Shown: piece by piece, positions 1,151-24,209 of the stretch | Layout: each line of letters starts with the position of its first letter | How positions within the stretch are numbered: position 1 is the stretch's first letter | Origin: Microcystaceae cyanobacterium | GTDB taxonomy: Bacteria > Cyanobacteriota > Cyanobacteriia > Cyanobacteriales > Microcystaceae | NCBI GenBank assembly: GCA_041746575.1 | Contig: JBGTGT010000123.1 | Coordinates: forward strand, 76,688 to 140,687 | DNA: 64,000 nucleotides | Direction: 5' to 3' | The notes under the pieces: model-generated | What the model was told of the DNA's origin: nothing | Databases searched by the model: none | Seen by the model: the letters and a program-made list of their open reading frames with translations, nothing else | Position numbers and translations under genes: made by a program

Positions 1151-1591
1151 GTGATTATGGTTCAATTTAGCAATTCTTCTGCCAATAATGCCCCCAGTCG
1201 CTGGCAATATCGATTAGATCGATTCGTCAAAACCCATCAATCCTCGTTGGCGGCTTTGGCGTGGGGATTACGTCAAGAATGGGACAATCAGGGCGATATG
1301 TTAGGCATTGATCTTAAAACGACTCCTCATTTTATCTGTTGTTCTTATGAGGCGATCGCTCAATTAAACGAGAATGTTGATTGTAAAATTCAAGAGATAT
1401 TAGGGATTATTGAACATTATGATCCTCAAGAAGAAGTGGTGATTATTACGATCGCCAATAGTCAAATTCAGTTAATTTATTTCCAACCGAATCCGACTCC
1501 TCCTGAGTGCTTCGCTCAGCATCAATTGAACTTAGATCAATTAATTCAGTCTCTAGAAACTGAAATGCAATCTATTGGGATTGAGGATTAA
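1151..1591 (+). CDS. ccmS: Beta-carboxysome assembly chaperone CcmS-like protein
   Basis: W..LD.FV....LAALAWGL, GIDL..PHF, QEILG..E...P..EV, F.P.P.PP.CF pattern recalled for the CcmS family. Confidence 0.7.
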   Translation: MIMVQFSNSSANNAPSRWQYRLDRFVKTHQSSLAALAWGLRQEWDNQGDMLGIDLKTTPHFICCSYEAIAQLNENVDCKIQEILGIIEHYDPQEEVVIITIANSQIQLIYFQPNPTPPECFAQHQLNLDQLIQSLETEMQSIGIED

Positions 1592-6030: not shown

Positions 6031-8844
6031 CTATAACCAATTACCCACTAAAACGAAAGGAGCCCAATAAAAAGGATGTTGATATTGAGGCGATCGCAAT
6101 AAAGACAGTTGCGCTTGTCTTAAGGCTTCCGCTTTACTCATGTCAGATTGACTCAAATACTGATAGAATTGAGCAATCAAATCTGCCGTCGATTGATCTT
6201 GGACTGACCAAAGAGTGGCTAAGGTACTCTGCGCACCTGAACGAACGGCGGTCCCTGCTAATCCTAATACGGCTCGTTTATCCCCCGTTGCTGTCTGACA
6301 AGCACTCAAAATCAACAATTCAATCGGATTTCTCTGTTGTTTTATCCGTTTTCGGAGCAATTGATCTAAATTTTTGACATTGATTCGTTCATCCCACGTC
6401 AGTAAAAACGTTTCTTCTGCTTGAGAAGAAAATTGACCGTGAGTGGCAAGATGAACCACAGGGAATGAGGTTTCTTCAATTTCTCGTTGCAGACGGTTGC
6501 GGGTAAAATCTTCGTCTAATAAGACTTCGGTAGAAACCACTGCCGAAATTTCTTGTACTTCTGCCTTGACACCGGGTAAGGAAGAGAATCCTTGACGTGC
6601 TTGCGCTAATCCCCCTGCTAGGGTTTTTAAGGGTTTTTCAGAGAGAGAGGACGGACGAAGCAGGTGCAAACCGGGTGCTAAAGCAATGTTATACTTTTCA
6701 ATTAAGTATTGCTGACCATCATGAAGCGCGGCCATCGGAATATTGCGTAGAAGGCCATCGAGAACGAATACCAAGGTTTTGATATGATTAGCTTCTAAGG
6801 TAGCTTCTAAAGGGCGAATTAGCCAATTATAAAACTGTTGATGGGGTTCTAGGGGATAAGGACTTGAAATAAAGGGGTTCAAGTTGGCAAATAACTCATC
6901 GAAGACAGGTTCAAGTTGTTCTAATGTCCCATAGCCGGAATTCTGATTAAAAGCGGTTTCATAGTAGCTTAACGGCTTTTGCGGTAAAGACAAAATGATG
7001 GCAATTCGTTGGGGTAAAACAATGGGATAGATTACTGCCGCATCGGGATCGAGTTGATCAACGGCTTGAAATTCCGCTTCTAGGCAGTTTTCTCGAAAGA
7101 AGTTGTTTAATTCAGCAAGTTGCAAAGACTCAATGATATTACGGGCTTCTTTGAGGGTATTTTCGCTGATTTGCCCTGTTGGCTCTAAAAGTTGATCGAC
7201 CAATTCTCGATAGACAGGTTCGACACTATCGCGAAAGTTAAATTGGATGTCTGCATTGCTGGTGACTAAGTCCCCTCGTAATGATTCTAGAATTTCTACG
7301 GCTAAGCGATAAGCAGCGATCGCTTCTTCTTTTTTTCCTAAAGAATAATACAAACGTCCCAGTTGCCATTGCCAGAAATAAGCCAATTCTGGATTTTCAA
7401 AGGCAGATATCTGCTGTAAAGCTAGCACGGTTGACTGTTGCGCCTTTATGGGTTGTCCCATCCCTTGGTAGGTTGCCCCTAGATATCCTAGGGAATTTGC
7501 TTGTGCGGCTTTGTCTCCTAGGGTTTGAGCTTGATTGAGGGCGATGGTGACTTTTTGCTGAATCTTTGTCCAAGTTGGTGGCGTTATTGCCTCAAAATGG
7601 GGATTTTCGACTATTGGACAAGACTGAAGAATAGGGGTGACAGGTAAGGTTTCATCCGTAGTGAATTGAGAGCGTAGGCACATTAACTGTTGAGCAAATT
7701 TGAGTTGTGCGGCAACGGTTGGATCATTAGGGGGTGAATTTGTTAATTCTGCCTCAATTTTAGCGATTAAAGTCGGTAGTTCTTGGCTTTGTCCTAGTTG
7801 CATCCAGAGACTCAGTAAATTGAGTTGCGCTTGTACTCTCGTGAGGGACGAAGGGGATTGTTCCGCTTGGTGATAACAGGCGATCGCACTTTGATACCAT
7901 TGACTAAGACTGAGATCATCCTCGGATAGGGGGCAACTGACAGATTGGGTTAAGTTGATCGGCGTTGGGGATGGAGGAATCGTAATTTTTTGATTGCCTA
8001 ATATTCGCACGGTATTGCCTAAACTGAGGGCAATTTCGGCTAAACTTTCTTTATCTTCATTCCTTTCTGCTAATTCCCAACTTTTTAATAGTACCCGATG
8101 GGAGACGTGGGGTTGCCCCGTTACTCGTAAGACGTTACCAAGACTGCGTAATCCTAGAATTTGTAGAGAAGTGGGCATATTTTCGGGGACTTGTGGCAAT
8201 TTGTCCCCTTTTATTTGACAATCTTCACTCTTAAAGTCCAAAGCATCGAGTAATGTTGTGCAAGCTCTCGGATAAAACCCTAAGGATTGCATGGCTTGTG
8301 CTTGATTGATCTGGCTTTGACGGACTCGATTGGGTTCCCCCATTTCTTGATAAATAGTAGTTGCTTTTTGCCAATTTTCTAAAGCATTTGCAGATTGACC
8401 CAAGTTTAAAGCTAATTTTCCTTTGATTTCTAGAGTTTCTGCTAAGATACGCTGTTTAGTATTGTTTTTTTTGACAGTGTCTAATAGAGCTAAGCTTTGA
8501 GCGATCGCTTTTTTGGCCTCATCCCATTGTCCGAGTTGCTGATGGGTTAAGGACAGATTACTCAGTGCCATGGCTTGATTGAGGGTATCTCCTTGGGTAG
8601 CAAATGTCTCGACTGCCTGTTGCCAGAGGGGGATTGCCGACTCAAATTGTCTTGTTTGATAGTTTTCTTTTGCTTTTTCAACCCATTGCGCTGTATTTTG
8701 CTGATTCTGAACAGAGGGCATGGAAAGAGAAACCGAAGAAGTAATCAGAGGAAGCGTGAAAGCAACAAAGAAAAGAAAAATAAGCAGAATTGACTTTTTT
8801 CTGATAAAACTTCGTACTCTCTGGTTTTTAAATCCAATTTTCAT
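6031..8844 (-). CDS. Exported TPR-repeat CHAT-domain (caspase-like) cysteine protease
   Basis: N-terminal hydrophobic signal/TM, TPR repeats, CHAT motifs LVFVLDG.LRNIP, VHLATHG (His), LLILSAC (Cys), HPFYWAPF; the ATG at 8844 overlaps the upstream stop (TAATG). Confidence 0.93.
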   Translation of the reverse strand: MKIGFKNQRVRSFIRKKSILLIFLFFVAFTLPLITSSVSLSMPSVQNQQNTAQWVEKAKENYQTRQFESAIPLWQQAVETFATQGDTLNQAMALSNLSLTHQQLGQWDEAKKAIAQSLALLDTVKKNNTKQRILAETLEIKGKLALNLGQSANALENWQKATTIYQEMGEPNRVRQSQINQAQAMQSLGFYPRACTTLLDALDFKSEDCQIKGDKLPQVPENMPTSLQILGLRSLGNVLRVTGQPHVSHRVLLKSWELAERNEDKESLAEIALSLGNTVRILGNQKITIPPSPTPINLTQSVSCPLSEDDLSLSQWYQSAIACYHQAEQSPSSLTRVQAQLNLLSLWMQLGQSQELPTLIAKIEAELTNSPPNDPTVAAQLKFAQQLMCLRSQFTTDETLPVTPILQSCPIVENPHFEAITPPTWTKIQQKVTIALNQAQTLGDKAAQANSLGYLGATYQGMGQPIKAQQSTVLALQQISAFENPELAYFWQWQLGRLYYSLGKKEEAIAAYRLAVEILESLRGDLVTSNADIQFNFRDSVEPVYRELVDQLLEPTGQISENTLKEARNIIESLQLAELNNFFRENCLEAEFQAVDQLDPDAAVIYPIVLPQRIAIILSLPQKPLSYYETAFNQNSGYGTLEQLEPVFDELFANLNPFISSPYPLEPHQQFYNWLIRPLEATLEANHIKTLVFVLDGLLRNIPMAALHDGQQYLIEKYNIALAPGLHLLRPSSLSEKPLKTLAGGLAQARQGFSSLPGVKAEVQEISAVVSTEVLLDEDFTRNRLQREIEETSFPVVHLATHGQFSSQAEETFLLTWDERINVKNLDQLLRKRIKQQRNPIELLILSACQTATGDKRAVLGLAGTAVRSGAQSTLATLWSVQDQSTADLIAQFYQYLSQSDMSKAEALRQAQLSLLRSPQYQHPFYWAPFVLVGNWL

Positions 8845-11429
8845 TAACGAGTACACCCCTGCTCTGTTTCTCTCAAGCGTTGAACACTGGTCACCGTAGG
8901 ATCATAAGACACCAAAACGACTTCCCCTCTCTCGTTAAAAACCCATCCTTGGGTGGCAACAAGGGAATTAGGACTTAAAGCAGTTTTTGTAATCGCTATG
9001 CTCTCTTTTTTGCCAATCTCCTGATTTCTCATGGGTGCAGGTTCAACTAAGCCGATTTCAGTGGCTTCACTGTTGAGATTTTCATTAAGGCTAGGGGTAG
9101 GGGGTAAGCCGCCCCGTCCTGATACGACTAATTCACTTCCTAAGCCGCTTTTACAGGAATTTTGGGCAATTAGTGTCTTGGGATCGACAATGGTTTCGGG
9201 CAGTAGCTCTAAGCCTTGATTGGAGTCTGGTTCTCGGTTAATAAAGATTTCTCCGGCTGAACCTGATTCTGAACTGGCATCAAGATCATTGGTTCGATTG
9301 CCGTCAGAAGCTTTCCGTCCTTGAATCCCAAAAATTCCCTCTGCGTTAATAATAATCCGTCCTCCATCTCCTTGGTTAGCATTAGCTGTAATGTCGCTTC
9401 CATTTGCACCCGTTGGTGGAGAAACAATCAAAAATGGTGTTTTAATTGTGATATTTCCTCCGTTAGCCTCCCCGTTGGCGGTAGCAGAAATGGTGCTTTC
9501 GTTGGCTATGGTTATTAAATCTGATGCAGTTAGGGTAATATTTGCTCCCTCTTCTCCTTGACTCCTACCTGTTTCGGCGGTAATTAAACCTTGATTAAGG
9601 GATAAGGAATTAGCGTTAATGTCAATGTTTCCGGCTAAACCTTGGCGACTGCTAACAGTGATTTGTGCGCCCTCAGAGAGGTTTAATTGTCCTGTAGTAA
9701 GGTTTAAATTCCCTGCTGTCCCACCTTCTTGGGTTGCTTTTACGGATAATTCTCCATTATTGCTCAATTGTACCGCTTCATGTGCGTTAATCGTTAAGTT
9801 TCCTGCCCTTCCTGTTTGAGTCGAAGCAGATAGGGTAGCTCCCTGTTGAATGGTTAATAGAGGAGTATTGATGGTCAAGTTTCCAGCCGAGGTACTTTGA
9901 CTGGTCGCTAAAACAGTGCTGTTTAACCCACTCAGGATAACTGACTCAGAAGCATTAATATTCAAGTTTCCTGCTTGTCCTGTACTTCTATCAAGAGCGG
10001 AAACGGATATACTCCCTCCGTCTTGGATACTCAGGCGACCTGTGTTGATGGCGATACTTCCTCCATTCCCTGAGGCTTCTCCTATTGTTTGAGCAAACAA
10101 ACTACTCCGTATTATTTTATTTTCTGATCTCCCTTGACCGCTAATCTCTACTGATTCCGTTGCTTCTACCGTAATCGTACCTGCATTGCCAGCACTAGAA
10201 GTCGAACTTGATAGCTGGCCTCCATTACGCAAAATAAGGCGACCCGTTTTAAGGGTTAAATCCCCTGCATTCCCATTGGCGAACGTTTGAGTACTTAATT
10301 GGTTAAAGCCTCCCCCAGCGTCCACCTCTACAGATTCAGTTGCATTGATAATTAAGTTTCCGCCTCGTCCCTCCTCATTTTCTGCAGTTGTCCTTATAAA
10401 CGATGAGTCATCTCGGACAACTAACTGTTTGGCTTCAATAATAATATCAGCCGCTGACCCACTATTAGATGTTGCTGTTACATCACTATCTCCTTCGACT
10501 GTTATCATTTCGGAAGCGTTTAGAGTAATTGTTCCACCTACATCCGTTCCTTGATTAAATCTTGTGATTTGGGATTTGTCCATTAATAAAATGTTTCTAC
10601 CCCGTAAGCTAATACTTCCGAGACCTTCCGTCGGTTCTAAAATACCTATACCTATACCTGCCTCCCGTGAAAGTTGAATATCTTGGAATGCCTCTACACT
10701 GTCGTAACTGAATGTCCAAGTAGTAGTTTGAGGGATTAGACTAACAAAAGCAGGAGAAGCTACGCTACCGATCTCAATGCTTCCTCCCAGAGTCGTAATT
10801 TTGCCTCCTTCTAAAAATACGCCACTCCCAATAAGTGCTAGGGTTCTACTGGGTGGAACTGCGAGTCCAGATGAATTTGTATCATTCACGACGGAGCGAT
10901 TGACGATACTGCCCGAATTCCCCCTAAATTGCAGACCAATCGGAATGCTAGTGGTTAGCAAGGGGGACGGCGACAAATCTCTAGCACTGAAAACCTTTCC
11001 ATCCGCAAAATGAATCTCACTAGCAGTACTGGCAATAAATGAGCCACCAATCTTTAATTGGGCATTATTCCCAAAAACGATGCCGCTCGGATTTAGTAAA
11101 AAAAGGTTCGCTGGATGATTTGCTCGAATTACTCCCTCAATATTAGATAAAGATCCCCCTGTGACTCGACTAAAGATATTTTGGATGGTATTGGCATTGT
11201 TAAAGAAAGCTTCTCCACCTGAGGGAATGGAGAACTCACGGAAGCTATGAAAAAGATTTCCTCCTTCTTGCCGACCCCCTACAATCGTAAATTGAGATTG
11301 ATCGGGGGTGGTGATCTCAGTCGATAATGTCCCGTCCCCACTGATTTGTGCCAAGCCGAGGGGCGTTATTATTAAATTACCTAAACTAAAAACACTGACA
11401 AGGGAAAGGAAATTTATCAATTTTTTCAT
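8844..11429 (-). CDS. TpsA filamentous-haemagglutinin-family exoprotein
   Basis: Signal peptide, TPS domain NLFHSF..F / SRVTGG / NLFLLNPSG, beta-helix repeats (GNAG.I.I.A), C-terminal GRGGLP...QGW motif. Confidence 0.93.
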   Translation of the reverse strand: MKKLINFLSLVSVFSLGNLIITPLGLAQISGDGTLSTEITTPDQSQFTIVGGRQEGGNLFHSFREFSIPSGGEAFFNNANTIQNIFSRVTGGSLSNIEGVIRANHPANLFLLNPSGIVFGNNAQLKIGGSFIASTASEIHFADGKVFSARDLSPSPLLTTSIPIGLQFRGNSGSIVNRSVVNDTNSSGLAVPPSRTLALIGSGVFLEGGKITTLGGSIEIGSVASPAFVSLIPQTTTWTFSYDSVEAFQDIQLSREAGIGIGILEPTEGLGSISLRGRNILLMDKSQITRFNQGTDVGGTITLNASEMITVEGDSDVTATSNSGSAADIIIEAKQLVVRDDSSFIRTTAENEEGRGGNLIINATESVEVDAGGGFNQLSTQTFANGNAGDLTLKTGRLILRNGGQLSSSTSSAGNAGTITVEATESVEISGQGRSENKIIRSSLFAQTIGEASGNGGSIAINTGRLSIQDGGSISVSALDRSTGQAGNLNINASESVILSGLNSTVLATSQSTSAGNLTINTPLLTIQQGATLSASTQTGRAGNLTINAHEAVQLSNNGELSVKATQEGGTAGNLNLTTGQLNLSEGAQITVSSRQGLAGNIDINANSLSLNQGLITAETGRSQGEEGANITLTASDLITIANESTISATANGEANGGNITIKTPFLIVSPPTGANGSDITANANQGDGGRIIINAEGIFGIQGRKASDGNRTNDLDASSESGSAGEIFINREPDSNQGLELLPETIVDPKTLIAQNSCKSGLGSELVVSGRGGLPPTPSLNENLNSEATEIGLVEPAPMRNQEIGKKESIAITKTALSPNSLVATQGWVFNERGEVVLVSYDPTVTSVQRLRETEQGCTR

Positions 11430-11475
11430 AGCGATCCTTTTTTATGACGCTTGCTCTCATCTTAACTTTTCCGTT

Positions 11476-11937
11476 CTATCCCGGATTACAGGTGACACAT
11501 CTTCGCCAAGGACCAAACCCAGCCCACTCCCCAATTCGTCCGAAACGAGACGTACATTCTCCGCATGCTAAACCAACCCGAGAAGTTAGCCCTTCTATTG
11601 CCTTTTCTCCGGCGCCGGCTTGCTTCCATAAGCGATCAGCTTTACTCAGTTCACCTTTTTGTTTTTTAATGTCTCCTAGACGCGTTTTAGCCACAATCAA
11701 AACGTCAACGTCTTTATTGTTTAGAACTTCTTCGATGGCTTTGTTAAAGAAAAACTCTGCATCATTGGTGTTCCCTGCTTCACTGGCTGCTATTCCGTCT
11801 TCTAACGCTTTCAAAGCTTCGCTATCGCGGGGCGTCTGAGCTGATGCAACTACAGGCGACATTACTAATACGGTTAAGCTGAGCATCAATGCTAGGACAA
11901 GGGAGCAGAGCATTGTCAAGGGAGACCGTCTTTTCAT
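11476..11937 (-). CDS. Secreted protein with TPR-like helices and a C-terminal CxxC-x18-CxxC tail
   Basis: Signal peptide ending ASA-Q, TPR-like helices, C-terminal CGEC...CVTC, AAGGA RBS upstream. Confidence 0.75.
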   Translation of the reverse strand: MKRRSPLTMLCSLVLALMLSLTVLVMSPVVASAQTPRDSEALKALEDGIAASEAGNTNDAEFFFNKAIEEVLNNKDVDVLIVAKTRLGDIKKQKGELSKADRLWKQAGAGEKAIEGLTSRVGLACGECTSRFGRIGEWAGFGPWRRCVTCNPG

Positions 11938-12038: not shown

Positions 12039-12404
12039 TTAGCGGAGTTCAATATCTGAGCGATCACGAACAACGGATTCAACTTCTGGCAAAGCGGCAA
12101 TCTTTTCTGCGACCATTGGCGTACCTAACAAAGCGACAAGGGGAAAGGCTGTTGGCTCTCCTATCGCCAAAACCTGATCTTCTAACCCCTCCTGTTGAAG
12201 CCATTGTTGGAGTTTTTGTTGAAAAGCTTGGTTATAAGCGATTCCACTTTCATAGATAGCCCCCCGTCCTTGAACAGATTTTGAGCTTTCATTTTCTGGT
12301 TTTAGCCGAATAATGTAAGGGTGTACGTCTGGAGGTAACTTTGAATAATCGCCGAGTAAAGGCTGAATGTTGGATGAAACATCTTGATCGGGTGGAATTT
12401 CCAT
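12039..12404 (-). CDS. Putative stand-alone subtilase propeptide / inhibitor I9-like protein
   Basis: YIIRLK near the N-terminus and AEKIAALPEVESVVRD at the C-terminus match the I9 pattern; ATG at 12404 lies 13 bp after the S8 stop. Confidence 0.55.
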   Translation of the reverse strand: MEIPPDQDVSSNIQPLLGDYSKLPPDVHPYIIRLKPENESSKSVQGRGAIYESGIAYNQAFQQKLQQWLQQEGLEDQVLAIGEPTAFPLVALLGTPMVAEKIAALPEVESVVRDRSDIELR

Positions 12405-12417
12405 AGAAAAACAATAA

Positions 12418-13797
12418 CTAAGAACAGGTAGGAACAAATCTAGCTAATCCAGCACCGACTCGTGCGGCGGGTTGATCATTAAGCTTAAGGGTATTGTTGA
12501 GGAGTTTTGCTCTAACGTCTTCTGGGGTTAATGAAGGCTCTTGACAGAAATATAAAGCCGCAATTCCCGTAACATAAGGGGCTGCCATACTGGTGCCACT
12601 TAAATTTTTATAGAGAGAGGAACCCTCGTAATCTCTTTCGTAGCTAGAATATATATTCACGCCATAGCCTACTAAATCCGGCTTACTGACGTTTCCGTCT
12701 TCATCTGCTTGTCCACTACCCGACAAGTCAAAGATTTGATGATTGAAATCCACAGCACCGATCCCCAAAATTTCCTTAAAACCCGCAGGAAATCTTAAAT
12801 TGTCTTGGCCTTCATTGCCGATTGCCGCAATGGGCAATATATTTGCTTTAATTAGCATTTGCAGAATTTTCCGCATGGTCTTGAGGCGTCCTTTGAACTC
12901 AGCGTCGGATTCGATATCCGTCGCCAATGAGCGGCTAAAACCAAGGGACATATTGAGAACGGCGGGAAGATTTTCATTTTCGGGGCGACTGAAATGAGAC
13001 AAGAGCCACTCCAATCCAGCCGCAACTCGAATAAGGTCAGTGCGAGAACTGCCGCTTTCGATCACTGACGCAACGTATAATTTGGACTCAGGTGCTATCC
13101 CTACCCGATTACCGCCAACAATACCGCAAACGTGTGTACCATGACCGTCAGGATCAAACCCTCGTACATCACGAGGCGGCCATTTGAAATCTTGGGGAAA
13201 GAGAGAGACGTAGCGATAGGTTACAGGACGACTAAATTCTTGATGATCGGCGTCTATTCCACTATCGAGAACCCCCACGAGAACATCTTGTCCTCTGATG
13301 TTTTGCTCGTGTGCTTCTGCTACCCCGCTAGTAATGCGCCATTCCTCCTCCTTAGCGCAACGGTATCCCCGAGCGTCATCATGAGTGATTGGCTGGGTTA
13401 AAAATAAGGGAAAATTAGGGAGAAATAAATAATCGCTATCTAGATCGCTTTTGGCATCGTTTTCTTCCTTCTCATCACAAAAATAGGCGGCAGTCACTCC
13501 CAGGGCATTGAGACTAGAAAATATTCCTTTTGAACAGGAAGATGCGTCTTCCGTTTGTAGCTTTTGAATATTCTCAAGACCCAGTTTTTGTAACTTATTG
13601 GGGACAGAAAACTCAGCATCTGGGTCATCTCTTCTCCATTCTAGCGGCTGCTGAGTTCCTCGACTACGTTGCATGATGGATCGAGAAGAAGTTGTATTCG
13701 AGTCAGCTTGACAAGTATGCTTGGGAACAACAAGATAGGCGTTGGCAAACTCTTGTTCTAAAGAATTAAGCGTTCTCTTCATCGAGGATTGAGGCAT
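12418..13797 (-). CDS. S8 subtilisin-like serine protease, no signal peptide
   Basis: Catalytic triad VLDSG, HGTHVCG, SGTSMAAP; oxyanion AAIGN. Confidence 0.93.
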   Translation of the reverse strand: MPQSSMKRTLNSLEQEFANAYLVVPKHTCQADSNTTSSRSIMQRSRGTQQPLEWRRDDPDAEFSVPNKLQKLGLENIQKLQTEDASSCSKGIFSSLNALGVTAAYFCDEKEENDAKSDLDSDYLFLPNFPLFLTQPITHDDARGYRCAKEEEWRITSGVAEAHEQNIRGQDVLVGVLDSGIDADHQEFSRPVTYRYVSLFPQDFKWPPRDVRGFDPDGHGTHVCGIVGGNRVGIAPESKLYVASVIESGSSRTDLIRVAAGLEWLLSHFSRPENENLPAVLNMSLGFSRSLATDIESDAEFKGRLKTMRKILQMLIKANILPIAAIGNEGQDNLRFPAGFKEILGIGAVDFNHQIFDLSGSGQADEDGNVSKPDLVGYGVNIYSSYERDYEGSSLYKNLSGTSMAAPYVTGIAALYFCQEPSLTPEDVRAKLLNNTLKLNDQPAARVGAGLARFVPTCS

Positions 13798-13975: not shown

Positions 13976-15718
13976 CTAAAAAAAGCGATAATTAATCGTA
14001 AAATAAAGCCCTTGCTCCTGTAAGGTCTGATCACTCGATTCAACATCAATTAAGGGAATTCCCCAATCAAAACGCGCTGTAAAATTGTCCCCCATCTGCC
14101 ACTGTAGCCCCAGTCCTATGCCTAGCAACGTATTTGGTACAGGAGTTAAGAGGGGATTACCCGTATCATTCCAAGCTACCCCAAAATCGATAAAAGGAGC
14201 AACTTGTAGAATGCCATTCACTTCATCAACCCGAAGAATTGGCAAACGCACTTCTGCTGAGGCGAAAACCCCATTATCCGTTAATAATAGATCCTGTCGA
14301 TAGCCTCGCACCGTATATAAACCCCCCAAAGTAAATTGCTCCAACGGAACAAGGGGTTGAGTCGTAAACTGTAAGGAAGAACGGAGAAGAAGCAAAGTAT
14401 CGGGTGCCAGCGATCGCACATACTGTCCTTGCCCTTGCCATTCAAAAAAGCGGCTATCGGGGGGATTATTATTTGTCGTTGCATCAAAGATATCTAAGCC
14501 AAAACTAAACTGAGAACGAAGAATAAAGATATCCTGAGAGCCTCGCTGAGTCCACTCTTGAAAAAAGCGTAGGGCTGAAATCCTTGTTTTCCCTTGATCA
14601 TTTGCGCCAGGTGAAAGAGGGAAACCTATGCCTAAGAGCCGAGTTTGACTCGCTGAATAGGAGGCGGTGATTCCCAAGGCCAATTCTTGGGTCGGAGTTT
14701 GCCAAATCGGTTGGCGAAAGCTTAGATCAAGATAAAGGGAATCCCCTTCAATATCTAAACGGTCAAAAGGGGCTTCAATCACCTGACTCGCCGTCCCTTG
14801 CGCTGTCAATTGCACTGTGCCATTGTAAGCATTAACAGGGATTGTGTAACTGCCATAAATGGCGTTACTGCCCTCCGTATTGGCGTATTCTATCCTCAAG
14901 CCGTCGCCAATACCGAATAAATTGCCTTGATTGAGGTCAATTCCCCGCTCAAAACTGCCAATACTGGGTACTCGGCTATTATCCAGAAAAACATTCAGAT
15001 AAAAAGAATCAGCTTCTTGGACTTTAACCGACAGAATACTCAATTCAGGGCGGCTTCCTGCTGACAAATCGGCGGAAATCGTTTCAATAAGGGGATCTAA
15101 TTGTAAGAGTTGTAGGGCTTCTAAGAGGCGATTTTGATTGAGGGGTGGGGCGGTGGCAATGGCTAACCGCTTGCGAACATAATCGGGGTTCAATCGTCCT
15201 TCAACCGTCACGTTGATGTCTTCAATGCCTCCTTCAATCACTTGCATTTTAACCACGGCGCGCTCAGGGGTAAAAACCTGTCCGGCGGGAATAAGCGCAC
15301 CCGAATTGATATATCCTGCGTTGACATAGTGTTGGGTAATCGCCGCCTCCGCTTGTAGTAATTGAGCAAAAGTGATGGGTTTATCGGTAAAAGGGGCGGT
15401 CACTTCCCTTAATTCTTGATCGCTAAACGCCGTATTGCCCTCAAATTCAAAGCGAATAATGGTAATATTTTGGGGCAAGTTGGGTTGATTTTGAGGAGAG
15501 GGAAGGGGTGTCGGAGGGATATCTAAGGAAGGAGCAGGAGGCGTCTGGGGAATCGGAATCGGTTCTGGCGATCTAGGGGGCAAAATAAAGGGACTCAGCG
15601 GCGGTTGGGAGCGAGGAGGAGTCGGATTTTGCGCATTTGCTCTCTCTTGAGAAAAAACAACGAATCCCTTTAATATCAATAAAACTAATAAATTTGCACT
15701 TAAACAGCGAAAATACAC
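13976..15718 (-). CDS. TpsB (ShlB/FhaC/HecB) outer-membrane transporter
   Basis: Signal, Pro-rich linker, POTRA (F.FEGNTAFS, Y...GYINSGA), VRGY motif, terminal aromatic residues. Confidence 0.95.
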   Translation of the reverse strand: MYFRCLSANLLVLLILKGFVVFSQERANAQNPTPPRSQPPLSPFILPPRSPEPIPIPQTPPAPSLDIPPTPLPSPQNQPNLPQNITIIRFEFEGNTAFSDQELREVTAPFTDKPITFAQLLQAEAAITQHYVNAGYINSGALIPAGQVFTPERAVVKMQVIEGGIEDINVTVEGRLNPDYVRKRLAIATAPPLNQNRLLEALQLLQLDPLIETISADLSAGSRPELSILSVKVQEADSFYLNVFLDNSRVPSIGSFERGIDLNQGNLFGIGDGLRIEYANTEGSNAIYGSYTIPVNAYNGTVQLTAQGTASQVIEAPFDRLDIEGDSLYLDLSFRQPIWQTPTQELALGITASYSASQTRLLGIGFPLSPGANDQGKTRISALRFFQEWTQRGSQDIFILRSQFSFGLDIFDATTNNNPPDSRFFEWQGQGQYVRSLAPDTLLLLRSSLQFTTQPLVPLEQFTLGGLYTVRGYRQDLLLTDNGVFASAEVRLPILRVDEVNGILQVAPFIDFGVAWNDTGNPLLTPVPNTLLGIGLGLQWQMGDNFTARFDWGIPLIDVESSDQTLQEQGLYFTINYRFF

Positions 15719-15984: not shown

Positions 15985-16713
15985 ATGCTCAATAAACAGC
16001 TTATTCTTTATCCAATCCTTCTAGGGCTATTGGTTCTGGAGACGACTCCCACTGTCGCCCAATCTCATCCTCCAGCATCTGATCCAACCCCTCGCATTTT
16101 GACTAGAGTCTTATTTAAGCCACCCCCAGAGGACAAAAAACCGCATCAAACTAGAGCGGCAGGTTCTCGTAATGAAGGACGTTGTCCTCAAGATAGAGAT
16201 TCTTCATCAACACCTCTGACTCCCCTCGTTCCTTCCGCTTCCTTTGGCTTAACAACAACAGAACGCCCCACTTTATGGTTAATGATACCCAAAACAACTG
16301 CTAGACAGGTGGTGTTAAGCATTCGAGAAGAAGGCATCCAATATCACTCCAAAACCCTGATTCCGATTACGGGTGAGTCTGGCGTTATTGGTTTACAACC
16401 CTCCGCAGATGCGCCTCCTTTAGCGACCGGCAAAACCTATCAATGGGGGGTAGTATTGGTCTGTGGAAAAACCCCGACGCCGAATGATCCCTCCTTTGCG
16501 GTTTGGGTAAAACGGGTGGCTATTGGCAATCCCCCTCAGCACGGCTCAACTTTGGAACAAGCCGCTTGGTATGGTAATCAGGGGATTTGGTACGATGCTT
16601 TAACCCATCTCGTGAAAGCCAGTCAATCTCAGCCGAATGATCCCGAATTAAAAGATATTTGGCATAATTTTCTTCAATCCGGAGGAATATTATCGAACGC
16701 TGATGAAGAGTAA
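15985..16713 (+). CDS. DUF928 family exported protein
   Basis: Signal peptide, F.PP..., T..AGSR..C, LTPLVP, T..ERPTLW, G..YQW, GIWYDAL. Confidence 0.88.
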   Translation: MLNKQLILYPILLGLLVLETTPTVAQSHPPASDPTPRILTRVLFKPPPEDKKPHQTRAAGSRNEGRCPQDRDSSSTPLTPLVPSASFGLTTTERPTLWLMIPKTTARQVVLSIREEGIQYHSKTLIPITGESGVIGLQPSADAPPLATGKTYQWGVVLVCGKTPTPNDPSFAVWVKRVAIGNPPQHGSTLEQAAWYGNQGIWYDALTHLVKASQSQPNDPELKDIWHNFLQSGGILSNADEE

Positions 16714-16727
16714 AAAGTCTTATAATC

Positions 16728-19436
16728 TTATTTTAGGAGTTCTTTCTCGATAAATGCCTTATTTTCAGGTGTTTCTGATTGCTTTAGGTATTCAAGAGCC
16801 ATGCGTCCAATTTGTTCATCGTCTCGATAGGCTTCTAATAAAGCGTCTAAGGTGAGATGAAATTGAAGCTGATCTCGTTGCTTGTTGGTAATGAGCAGTA
16901 AGATGGTCGTCCCCCCTAAAAGAGCGATTAAAGAAGGCATAACAGGCAACCACCACCCCTCTATAAAGGCAAGGTAGCATCCCCCCACCAGTCCCCCACT
17001 GATCCCTAAAGAAACGATGAGAATCGCTTTAAGCGATTTAAATCGCCAACTGATGCTAGCACCGACGGCGGCCATCACTAAAATCCACAACCCTTCCCAG
17101 AAATCGGGCAAAACCCGCAGTAAGGGTCGCCCATCTAAGGCAGCACTGAGCAGTTGGCTGGCAATATTAGCCTGAATAACGATTCCCGGCATCATTGCAG
17201 GGGAATTCAAGAACGGACTGCTATAAGGGGTATAGAACAAGTCATTGATGCTTTCGGCGGTTGTTCCGATTAAAACTAAGCGATCGCGGAAATCATCGGG
17301 AGAAATGGGGTTATTCAGAATTTCTCTTAAGGAAAAAGTTCTAAAATTAGGTTCTGTTCCTCGAAAATTAAGCAAAATCTGGTAACCGCCTGACTGGGTG
17401 CGTACATATCCCCCATCGTTCCCAGTGAACCGCTCAAAGTCGGCTTTTCCCAGACGCACCCGTTGTCCCTGTTGATCGAGAGATTCAAGCGTAATATTAT
17501 GGACTTCAAGATAATGCAAGGCTAACTTTACGGCAAAACTGTAGCGAATCTCGTCATCCGCGAGAATCATCGACAATAAGGCACGACGAACTTTTCCATC
17601 TCCATCGACCACTAGATCGGCAAAACCAATTTGTTGACGTTGATTAAGGTAGGGAGAAGGGGCAATTGTCATACCGATCGCTTTTTCGATGCCGAATAGA
17701 TAGGGGGTCGATTGAAACAGTTGAACTAAATCACGATGACCGGGTTCGACGGGTAAATCTCGATAAAGATCGAGTCCAATGGCTTGAGGTTGGGCGGCTT
17801 TAATCCGGCTCAGGGCTTGAGCTAAGATACGGTCGGGGATCGGCCACTGTCCAACTTGAGCCAAGTCTGTCTCATCGATGGTTACAATTACAACTCGTTC
17901 GTCAGGGGGTTCTAGCGGTCGCCAACGTAGGAATCGATCAAATCCGTGCCATTCTAAGCCCTGTAGCAGTCCACTGAAGCGCAGGAGGAGAAGGGGGATA
18001 GTTACCCCTAGGGCTGTAAGGGGAATCCATTTGCACTCGGTTCTTCGTTTCAGAATGGTTTGTTTGGCGATCGCTCTAGCGGATGCTAGTAAGTGACTAG
18101 CTTGTTCGGTAACATCTAAGAGGTGCTGGGTTTGTTGTTTGGCGACATCTTGACTGGCTACTAAAAATTGATAATCTTCTTCGCTGAGGCATTTTCCTAA
18201 TCCCCACGTTAAGGCTTTTTGCAATTCTACCCCTTGTAACAAATAGAGAGTATCCTGACGTTCAGACGCAGACCAAGCGGCGATCGCACTGGCATACGGT
18301 CGCAATTGCTCTAATTGTTGTTCTAGCCAATTTTGGTCAAAAACCGCTTCATAAATGGGATTATGAATTTTGAGGTGTCCTTGCTTTTCGACCACTAACC
18401 CTGACATTCGTAATTCCATCTGTTCAGCACTGCCGTCAGCAGGAATTTCGCCTTGTTGCCATATTTTTTGATAAAGTCCTAGTAATTGAACGGCTTTTTC
18501 TTCGTTTTTAAGAATTCTGTCTCGGATCGTTTTTAAATGTTGGGGTTCGTCTTGAACAACCCAGTTTTTGACAATCTGATTGCGTACTATTTGTTCAATG
18601 GTGGGAAGTGTCGTAATGGGTGAAGTGGCATCAAAGAGAAGGGATTGGGATTTGACGACTAAATGACAGAGTTTTTGGGTAAGAAAGGGCTGTCCTCCTG
18701 TCCAGTCTAGAATTTCTCGGATCACGGCTTCAGGATACTCTATCGTCCCTTTTAATCCTTCCATTAAGGGTTGGACTTCGGCAAAAGAAAAGCCAGATAG
18801 TTGAATAGCCTGACCAATATTAAAGGGGGTTTGTTTTTTATCACGAATTAAGTCAGAGGGAGAGGCAACTCCTAACAGGGCAAAGGTCAAACGTTTGTAA
18901 TCGGAATGGGTATTCCGTCTCTCGTAACAATAGCGAATTAGTCTAAACAGGTCATCAAGGGAAAAGGATTGACTGAGAACATAATCAATTTCATCAATAA
19001 AAATAGCGATATTCTGCTTGATTTCAACTAAGAGAATTTCTTCGATAAATAAACTTAAACATTGTACGGGTGAAAACATTTCCCGCTGTTTCTTCCACCA
19101 GGTTCGCCATTCAAATTTCGAGATGAGTTGACCGCCATTGACTAGGGTATAAAAAATGCCAGCATACCACGTTTCGGGGGTTACATTCTGACTGCCGAGG
19201 CACGTTAGGTCAATACAAACACAAATGATCCCTTCTGCTTCTAATCGCTTCATCGTTCGCACTCGCAAGCTGGATTTGCCCATTTGCCGCGAGTTGAGGA
19301 CATAACAAAACTGCCCGATTTTTAAGGCTTGATAAAAGGCTACGTCTGCCTGTCGTTTTACATAGCTAGGCGCATCACTGTCGAGACTTCCGCCGACTTG
19401 ATACACATAAGTTGATGGCATTGCTGTCATGGACAA
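16728..19436 (-). CDS. AAA_35 (STAND-like) NTPase - TM - CHASE2 - 3TM receptor
   Basis: YQVGGSL, NSRQMGKSS, IFIDEID, TPFNIG, WTGGQPFLTQ; CHASE2 WPIPD, IGLDLYRD, D.DG.VRR, VLIG.TA..ND; three C-terminal TM helices. Confidence 0.9.
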   Translation of the reverse strand: MSMTAMPSTYVYQVGGSLDSDAPSYVKRQADVAFYQALKIGQFCYVLNSRQMGKSSLRVRTMKRLEAEGIICVCIDLTCLGSQNVTPETWYAGIFYTLVNGGQLISKFEWRTWWKKQREMFSPVQCLSLFIEEILLVEIKQNIAIFIDEIDYVLSQSFSLDDLFRLIRYCYERRNTHSDYKRLTFALLGVASPSDLIRDKKQTPFNIGQAIQLSGFSFAEVQPLMEGLKGTIEYPEAVIREILDWTGGQPFLTQKLCHLVVKSQSLLFDATSPITTLPTIEQIVRNQIVKNWVVQDEPQHLKTIRDRILKNEEKAVQLLGLYQKIWQQGEIPADGSAEQMELRMSGLVVEKQGHLKIHNPIYEAVFDQNWLEQQLEQLRPYASAIAAWSASERQDTLYLLQGVELQKALTWGLGKCLSEEDYQFLVASQDVAKQQTQHLLDVTEQASHLLASARAIAKQTILKRRTECKWIPLTALGVTIPLLLLRFSGLLQGLEWHGFDRFLRWRPLEPPDERVVIVTIDETDLAQVGQWPIPDRILAQALSRIKAAQPQAIGLDLYRDLPVEPGHRDLVQLFQSTPYLFGIEKAIGMTIAPSPYLNQRQQIGFADLVVDGDGKVRRALLSMILADDEIRYSFAVKLALHYLEVHNITLESLDQQGQRVRLGKADFERFTGNDGGYVRTQSGGYQILLNFRGTEPNFRTFSLREILNNPISPDDFRDRLVLIGTTAESINDLFYTPYSSPFLNSPAMMPGIVIQANIASQLLSAALDGRPLLRVLPDFWEGLWILVMAAVGASISWRFKSLKAILIVSLGISGGLVGGCYLAFIEGWWLPVMPSLIALLGGTTILLLITNKQRDQLQFHLTLDALLEAYRDDEQIGRMALEYLKQSETPENKAFIEKELLK

Positions 19437-23326: not shown

Positions 23327-24209
23327 GGGTCATGTTTCAGAAGTGTGGATCGCCTTAAATTGCTACTCCAAACTCGTACCGATTAATAAATAGTCCGATG
23401 ACAATATCGTGCATTTCCTCTGACTTTGAATAACAGATAGTTTTTCTTTGTAATCTTTTAATTCTTGTCCTTAATCCTAAATGTTTTCTCTCTATTGTTT
23501 GTGTTTTGCTCTTGCTCACTTCATGTTTTTCGGCTGGAAGATTTCTTGAATAAGCTCCCCAGCCATCGGTGCAATATTTTTGAATTCCAAAGGGGTCAAG
23601 TAGTTTCTTCAATTCCAAAAAGACTTCATCTTTTCTACTTCCAAATACATAAGCCAAAACTTTTCCCGTTCCTCGATCGATTTTTCTTGCCGCCCACAAA
23701 GCTCCACACTTCATCAACTTCTGATTCTTTTACTCCGAAGCTGCAAACTGGCTCATCCCAAGCAGTCTCTTCCTCCACTTTATAGATTTCTATCTCTGTC
23801 TCTTCTGGATTTAAGTTGTTCAATGCCTTTTCATTGACTGATTTTAGATGCGGCTTTTTCTTCTTCAATTCATTGATAACTGTTGTCGGGCTTACCTTTA
23901 AAACTCTGGCTATATCTCGGATTCCACTGCCGCTCAAACTCATCTCAATCATTTGTTCTTTCTTATCTCTAATTCTTTCTTGATAAGTATAATTTAAAAT
24001 GAAAGTGCAGCGAACACAATCACTATTGTTGCACCGATAACGTTGTTTTCTTTGAGGAGATATTCCATGTTTCGAGATCTTATTGGACAGGCAATCGGGA
24101 CAACAAATAGCAGACCAAACCGTCATAAACTTACTCTAAAAAACTCAGCTTACTTGATTACTCGCTTATTTTCAACTAATAGAGCTTCCACCTTTCTGAA
24201 ACATGACCC
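23327..24209 (-). mobile_element. IS1-family insertion sequence with a disrupted transposase
   Basis: IRs GGGTCATGTTTCAGAAGTGTGGA (23327-23349) and TCCACCTTTCTGAAACATGACCC (24187-24209); InsA Zn-finger/HTH and InsB DDE motifs. Confidence 0.92.
23355..24126 (-). pseudogene. IS1 transposase, frameshifted after DEVWSFVGGKK
   Basis: ORF 23635-24126 leaves frame at about 23680; the DDE part (IDRGTGKVLAYVFG, TDGWGAY, IER) continues in another frame; the usual RWLW.A segment is missing. Confidence 0.8.

Follow-up and report, generated by a model that had tools for sequence, protein, structure and literature searches.

What does a small, apparently exported protein with a four-cysteine tail do directly in front of tpsA? 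The question is raised by gene X (P0001), which lies in a cyanobacterial stretch of 64,000 nucleotides, referred to below as the window. A sequence-only reading had described its product as a secreted TPR mini-protein ending in a CGEC-x18-CVTC tail. This description held: the 153-aa ORF has a predicted signal peptide and four modelled helices. Gene and parts are arranged as follows.

11476..11937, minus strand: gene X (P0001), 153 aa, proposed precursor gene, with a family of 32 full-length homologues.
11839..11937, minus strand: predicted Sec signal peptide of X, aa 1-33 (from sequence and hydrophobicity; present in 26/32 homologues).
11593..11820, minus strand: four-helix TPR-type body of X, aa 40-115 (from the model and structure matches).
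11479..11565, minus strand: cysteine tail of X, C-x2-C-x18-C-x2-C, aa 125-153, with hypervariable loop (from alignment and model).

X was confirmed as a real gene. Its N-terminus has a basic n-region and a hydrophobic h-region (best 12-residue Kyte-Doolittle mean of 2.82), and heuristic reading predicted cleavage between VASA and Q. The C-terminus reads ACGECTSRFGRIGEWAGFGPWRRCVTCNPG in the ORF translation, with cysteines spaced C125-x2-C128-x18-C147-x2-C150, and the tail was modelled as a beta-hairpin. ORFs of at least 60 aa ending in CxxC-x6-28-CxxC numbered 3 of 5287 in the genome, X alone among them had a signal peptide, and the motif was kept in homologues; it was therefore taken as more than a product of chance. 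Haem c attachment was discarded for the tail, which has no CxxCH, as was a lipoprotein, Cys11 not being within a lipobox. An overlapping plus-strand ORF (11444-11839) was dismissed as a true gene because conservation of signal, body and tail runs in the minus frame. Scans for promoters and terminators found none in the gaps separating S8, X and tpsA, and their counts were close to those of shuffled sequence. Four DNA runs of one study, three of them possibly the source, showed no variant in the stretch and are uninformative on the variability of X; the sequencing-run search listed no RNA run with the stretch, which says nothing on expression of X.

The structure of X was modelled with AlphaFold2 on 29 alignment rows (mean pLDDT 83.7). 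Four helices (40-53, 57-74, 77-93 and 97-115; block pLDDT 90-98) were followed by the two strands of the tail hairpin (135-139 and 146-149; pLDDT about 77-85). Compared with TPR structures (LGN/Pins and others), the helices scored a best Z of 11.9 with an rmsd of 1.8 over 80 residues, a Z below the value of about 13 asked by the structure-search tool for helical repeats. Profile matches in the PDB were the TPRs of OGT and kinesin light chain. Pfam TPR models matched homologues P0037 and P0077 and gave no match in P0001. Assignment of the modelled body to the TPR fold held on testing. Foldseek with the X model returned no match at E < 0.001, and an atlas search with residues 95-153 returned nothing at 0.8 or above, the whole protein leading to generic TPR clusters.

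Homologues of X were collected in steps. Single-sequence search returned the query alone; genome searches gave three homologues, a profile of these gave about 30 short relatives from a representative library, and three more were added. The final set comprised 32 full-length tail-bearing sequences, 22-46% identical to the query. Left out were the tail-less short P0014, P0020 and P0035, one generic TPR, long TPR-repeat matches and three cluster twins. Named homologues were cyanobacterial. Close homologues occurred in 4/89 family genomes, and a metagenome scan yielded one locus. No paralogue was found in the own genome, no match in the plasmid collection, no true member besides X in a 400-genome phylum sample (a weak search, with 9 candidates scored per genome), and no further tail-bearing members in the families around G648 and G454. 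Curated Pfam/NCBIfam models assigned no family above cut-off to P0001, P0007 or P0156.

Three cysteine columns were invariant in the alignment and the fourth was nearly so. Mean pairwise identity was highest in the body (0.33) and the signal (0.29) and much lower in the loop (0.10) and the linker (0.06). Over 496 pairs, with body and tail aligned separately, non-cysteine tail identity was about half that of the body where the pairs were close, and no higher than in shuffles where they were distant; in the 16 pairs with body identity of 0.55-0.70 it was 0.34 versus 0.21 shuffled. By these alignments the loop changes about twice as fast as the body, which may reflect relaxed constraint instead of diversifying selection. 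The check by homology that the earlier reading had proposed thus came out as it expected, the tail varying and the cysteines being kept. Two members, P0012 and P0025, share their first 67 residues exactly and then differ in the end of the body and the tail; this possibly reflects a C-terminal half swapped by recombination, or an assembly chimera.

Tails carried four cysteines in 20 members, six in nine, eight in one and an odd number in two. The count was even in 30/32, including 10/12 of those without four (p = 0.019, kin not being independent), so that additional cysteines arrive in pairs, and 31/32 bodies had no cysteine. The last pair was C-x2-C in 29/32 and the first in 18/32, the spacing of the first pair ranging from 0 to 4.

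The body also has relatives outside this family. P0037, which is 30% identical to X, matched a long TPR protein with 42% identity over 102 aa (E 8e-21), versus an E of only 0.04 for CHAT TPRs. By sequence, the X body is akin to the TPR module at the C-terminus of longer cluster proteins (about 360-390 aa). These long secreted TPR proteins belong to CHAT/CHASE2/tpsA clusters, and no Pfam family beyond generic TPR was assigned to them; two lie upstream of tpsA, and one (L088:9804-10970) has a two-cysteine extension. X differs from them in lacking their N-terminal 240 residues, and most of the examples seen end without a cysteine tail. The L088 protein (minus strand, 389 aa) has a C-terminal extension ending in two adjacent cysteines and stands directly before a TpsA-CHAT fusion; it is a possible intermediate between the long family and X. 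Such kinship could make X a functionless, decaying remnant of a longer TPR protein, as its patchy spread (4/89 family genomes) and the three short homologues without a tail would allow. Against this, reading frame, signal peptide and cysteine frame are intact across 32 sequences only 22-46% identical to the query, and bodies stay free of cysteine in 31/32; we consider decay hardly credible.

The tail had also been described as cationic and aromatic. This was modestly true of X itself (net charge +2; four aromatic residues, two Trp and two Phe; four Arg) and did not extend to its family, in which tail charge ranged from -4 to +6 (mean +1.6; four members at -3 or lower) and the median number of aromatics was one, with at most one in 19/32; it is therefore a trait of X alone. 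The same figures bear on release of the tail as an antimicrobial or otherwise toxic hairpin peptide, the option that the sequence-only reading had offered beside a signal. The Arg, Trp and Phe residues of X would suit such a peptide, as would the pairing of acidic bodies (mean charge -6.6) with mildly basic tails, known from some pro-peptides. Neither the strong charge nor the aromatic face of cationic beta-hairpin antimicrobials is found across the family, no immunity-like gene recurs in the loci read, and the neighbours are sensors and proteases. A toxic function is accordingly very improbable, and the antimicrobial option is not supported.

The neighbours of X in the window, named by Pfam in the order AAA_35-CHASE2, DUF928 (opposite strand), tpsB, S8, 132-aa ORF, X, tpsA and TPR-CHAT, are these.

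16728..19436, minus strand: AAA_35-CHASE2 membrane sensor (Pfam).
15985..16713, plus strand: DUF928 protein with signal peptide (Pfam).
13976..15718, minus strand: tpsB, POTRA and ShlB barrel (Pfam).
12418..13797, minus strand: S8 protease without signal peptide, triad D178/H219/S403 invariant.
12039..12437, minus strand: 132-aa ORF, weakly PopD-like, between S8 and X.
8844..11429, minus strand: tpsA, 861 aa, TPS domain, starting 46 nt after X.
6031..8856, minus strand: TPR-CHAT protease, with a hydrophobic segment at the N-terminus; its His motif (HLATHG) and Cys motif (LSACQ) are intact.

The reported place of X between an S8 gene and tpsA was borne out, with the 132-aa ORF between S8 and X, tpsA directly downstream and TPR-CHAT after it. 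In all eight tail-bearing loci (window, G016 with two tandem copies, G028, G454, G737, G532, G035 and L094) tpsA directly follows the X gene, with gaps of -73 to +208 nt. The tail-less copy in G648 (P0014) runs into a CHAT fragment, not tpsA. Two tandem copies with differing tails stand ahead of one tpsA at L015:10319-11316 (plus strand), and the second tpsA of that cluster is preceded by its own unrelated slot gene. Genes for TpsA/TpsB, exported TPR-CHAT and CHASE2 are widespread among cyanobacteria: close CHAT matches were found in 36/41 genomes and CHASE2 in 34/41. TpsA of the window has only two cysteines (759 and 859), both within its conserved C-terminal region. Across aligned TpsA proteins this C-terminus (window 8844-9200, minus strand) shows two cysteines separated by some 100 residues, with a conserved GRGG motif lying in between; these are possibly an anchor and a protease site.

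The position before tpsA was surveyed for 76 tpsA genes in clusters chosen by TpsA, CHAT or CHASE2 similarity, irrespective of X. An ORF was scored positive if it lay on the same strand, began with ATG and encoded 40-200 aa with two or more cysteines among the last 32 residues, the last within 10 of the end, and with the stop within 450 nt. By this rule 29/76 tpsA genes were positive (four of these ORFs looked spurious by eye), six had another tpsA upstream and 41 had no such ORF. Controls gave 4/76 on the opposite strand, 20/916 for long genes of the own genome (two of these being tpsA neighbours) and 0/54 for other long genes in the same loci. Positives were concentrated in the window's family (24/31 tpsA genes, 16/17 genomes); outside it they numbered 5/45, four of the five being the spurious-looking ones.

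Sixteen of the slot ORFs, of 50-100 aa, consisted of a signal peptide, a Gln/Asn/Thr/Glu-rich spacer and a terminal C-x2-8-C ring, with an aromatic residue in or beside the ring in 14/16 and a Gln within five residues before it in 13/16. By their small size the shortest occupants can be hardly anything other than peptide precursors. At L249, an X-like signal and a C-x3-C-x12-C-x2-C tail are joined by a short spacer and no TPR; since an X-type tail is carried there without the TPR, the tail was taken as the constant part and the body as exchangeable. Other occupants were leaders of 60-170 aa that lack a signal and end in cysteines, and a 122-aa six-cysteine protein. Eight slot ORFs that were tested belonged to no Pfam or NCBIfam family above cut-off. 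These sequence comparisons show the position before tpsA to be a slot in which X is swapped, in related clusters, for other cysteine-tailed small genes. On a quick TpsA tree, slot class needed 3 changes versus 7.8 when shuffled, a clustering that is expected because linkage alone gives it.

About eight other slot ORFs were signal-less; those with unrelated leaders and cysteine ends were seen at L185:6211-6531, L186, L187, L188:7502-7957, L192, L194:7137-7562, L203 and L015:2702-3208. In two signal-less slot ORFs the cysteines are closely preceded by GG or GA, which hints at a different route of export. The second slot gene of the window's genome (G000:C15:2945-3127, minus strand) encodes 61 aa that start with a signal peptide and end in a Gln-Pro-Gln spacer followed by a two-cysteine ring; it is flanked by a CHASE2-EAL-like gene and the second tpsA.

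The answer that we tentatively prefer, with a little less than an even chance of being right, is that X is a pre-pro-peptide and its tail, looped by disulphides, a cluster-specific ligand of the TpsA/TPR-CHAT/CHASE2 envelope system. X is read in this way because what stays constant in the slot is a variable cysteine ring, with an exchangeable front part, and because the shortest occupants are peptide-like and the neighbours are a secretion pair, an exported caspase-like protease and a sensor. X would be exported by its Sec-type signal peptide, which together with the TPR-type body carries the variable four-cysteine tail. The tail would likely close into a two-disulphide hairpin and would probably be released by cleavage, for which the neighbouring S8 protease is the likeliest enzyme in this locus. 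Once freed, it would act as ligand for the neighbouring TpsA/TpsB, TPR-CHAT, DUF928 and CHASE2 system. TpsA is suggested as the first binding partner because one small gene pairs with each tpsA; from its C-terminal region a relay might run through the periplasmic TPR-CHAT to CHASE2, which is the weakest step. Anatomy of X, kept cysteine frame with variable loop, place before tpsA and co-occurrence with the S8 subfamily are established by sequence comparison. This reading leaves the export route of signal-less X members and slot ORFs unexplained, which counts against it.

Such members are also what keeps a metal site in play. Six of the 32 homologues begin at the mature N-terminus and have no signal peptide. 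In G532 another member also lacks the signal; an in-frame stop lies upstream of it, and it possesses a ribosome-binding site of its own. At least seven members would thus sit in the cytoplasm, and because they retain four cysteines the metal-binding knuckle, an option of the sequence-only reading, was kept alive for them, being less likely for the secreted forms. The layout C-x2-C ... C-x2-C around a beta-hairpin is that usual in zinc ribbons. The tail could accordingly be a knuckle for zinc or another metal, of zinc-ribbon or DnaJ-finger type, and X a chaperone or redox helper of its own TpsA, serving for example the two C-terminal TpsA cysteines; both pairs are near zinc-ribbon spacing in 18/32, and the position before tpsA is fixed. 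Yet with a first-pair spacing of 0 to 4, disulphides fit the tail better than a fixed metal site, and there are six- and eight-cysteine variants. Two-cysteine slot peptides cannot form a four-ligand site, the signal peptides of 26/32 members point to an oxidising compartment, and a helper for a conserved TpsA region needs no hypervariable loop. A metal knuckle is on this evidence improbable.

Whether the tail is released at all is a separate matter. At positions -1 to -7 before the first cysteine no residue was conserved across the X family, the commonest reaching at most 8/32, so that no cleavage motif is visible; a conserved CHAT-type Arg site ahead of the tail was rejected. GG or GA preceded the first cysteine in a minority only. 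The S8 gene, whose product itself has no signal peptide, which also speaks against release, precedes X in 4/7 loci with upstream sequence and is missing in three, L094 being too short. Its subfamily was found in 4/89 family genomes (E 1e-40), exactly those with close X homologues and adjacent each time, and in 0/400 other genomes of the order (E 1e-60). The four S8-X loci may descend from one or two, or at any rate few, events. The earlier idea of a released, disulphide-closed signal peptide is partly supported: the variable tail and the slot survey speak in favour, whereas the pre-cysteine positions and the occurrence of S8 at only 4/7 loci do not.

Since no cleavage motif is visible and S8 is optional, the whole mature protein was kept as a rival ligand or regulator, its TPR body presenting the hairpin uncleaved to TpsA, TPR-CHAT or CHASE2 in the periplasm; toward TPR-CHAT it might serve as a decoy substrate or inhibit it in the manner of a securin. 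The body was modelled with confidence as a TPR module and carries conserved motifs on its surface, and its apparent derivation from the TPRs of longer cluster proteins, noted above for P0037, suits such a role. Other slot genes swap the body for unstructured spacers or unrelated leaders and always keep the cysteine tail, and the rare S8 protease travels with close X homologues, both of which argue for release. We regard the uncleaved ligand as rather unlikely.

Extended to the whole family of organisms, the pre-pro-peptide reading would make the slot genes a widespread and unannotated set of peptide signals with disulphide rings. Each tpsA would have one such gene, whose signal would be read by TpsA and relayed via TPR-CHAT to CHASE2, and X would be the largest form, equipped with a TPR pro-domain and a PopC-like maturation protease. 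This wider proposal is doubtful. If true, CHASE2 and exported CHAT proteases would gain their missing input, and a new architecture of cell-cell or self-recognition signalling would be added in Gram-negative bacteria. For cyanobacteria, and for Gram-negative bacteria in general, few cases of peptide signalling between cells are documented. The candidate ligands that the slot offers are short enough to synthesise and each belongs to one cluster, which makes cognate and non-cognate pairs directly testable.

Several known systems invite comparison. In ComQXPA and agr, a small variable precursor, differing between clusters, is encoded together with its processing enzyme and a sensor in the membrane. 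X resembles them in being a proposed variable precursor beside a putative processing enzyme and a sensor. It differs in its Gram-negative envelope setting, Sec-type signal and predicted disulphide ring, in place of a prenyl or thiolactone group, and in its TPR pro-domain, TPS pair and caspase-like protease; no homologous parts were found. In HMW1/HMW1B and CdrA/CdrB, a C-terminal cysteine hook of TpsA anchors it in TpsB, which the two cysteines near the C-terminus of TpsA here (759, 859) recall; neither pair is known to have a small cysteine-tailed gene. The conserved leader and variable core of RiPP precursors are present in the X family. In the window, L015 and L016, no neighbour with a Pfam annotation was a modifying enzyme (LanM, YcaO, radical SAM) or PCAT, and no conserved cleavage site was found within the X family.

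PopC is a subtilisin that, despite having no signal peptide, leaves the cell and cleaves a surface protein to yield an intercellular signal (PMC6434023). The S8 protease here is likewise a signal-less subtilisin with an N-terminal extension beside a small PopD-like gene, as in the PopC/PopD pair of the Myxococcus xanthus C-signal, and is likened to PopC by these features. The match of the 132-aa ORF to the PopD family (35.6 bits, covering model positions 61-132) is far below the cut-off of 200, and the ORF was found in only 1/5 genomes tested, this one, and not in four related genomes. The substrate in Myxococcus is CsgA, not a cysteine-tailed peptide. For DdvA, the accessible text describes a periplasmic TPR-CHAT that rests inactive awaiting a signal stated as unknown (PMC11506125). 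Exported TPR-CHAT and intact His/Cys dyad are common to both; DdvA, as far as that text goes, differs in being an anti-sigma factor with a cytoplasmic domain and in having no TPS pair, DUF928, CHASE2 or peptide gene. CHASE2 appears as a sensor fused to some orthocaspases in the accessible text of PMC7475262.

No account of X, of the slot or of a TPS/CHAT/DUF928/CHASE2 cluster was found in the literature covered, which lay mostly outside subscription journals. The X family and the variable-peptide slot that it occupies are both undescribed there, and X most likely works like a peptide-signal precursor. Clusters of the TPS/CHAT/DUF928/CHASE2 type as such were reportedly noted in an earlier paper.

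Some further observations were made in passing. The signal-less S8 gene and the small PopD-like gene overlap (window 12039-13797, minus strand), forming a PopC/PopD-like pair in a cyanobacterium. In two genomes a 133-aa secreted, cysteine-containing protein (L189:10542-10940 and L196:1247-1645, both plus strand), which had no Pfam or NCBIfam family, lies directly before TPR-CHAT. Elsewhere in the window, a 146-aa ORF at 1151-1591 (plus strand) had no Pfam match, and an IS1-family InsA-like gene at 23635-24126 (minus strand) adjoins an ABC transporter operon.
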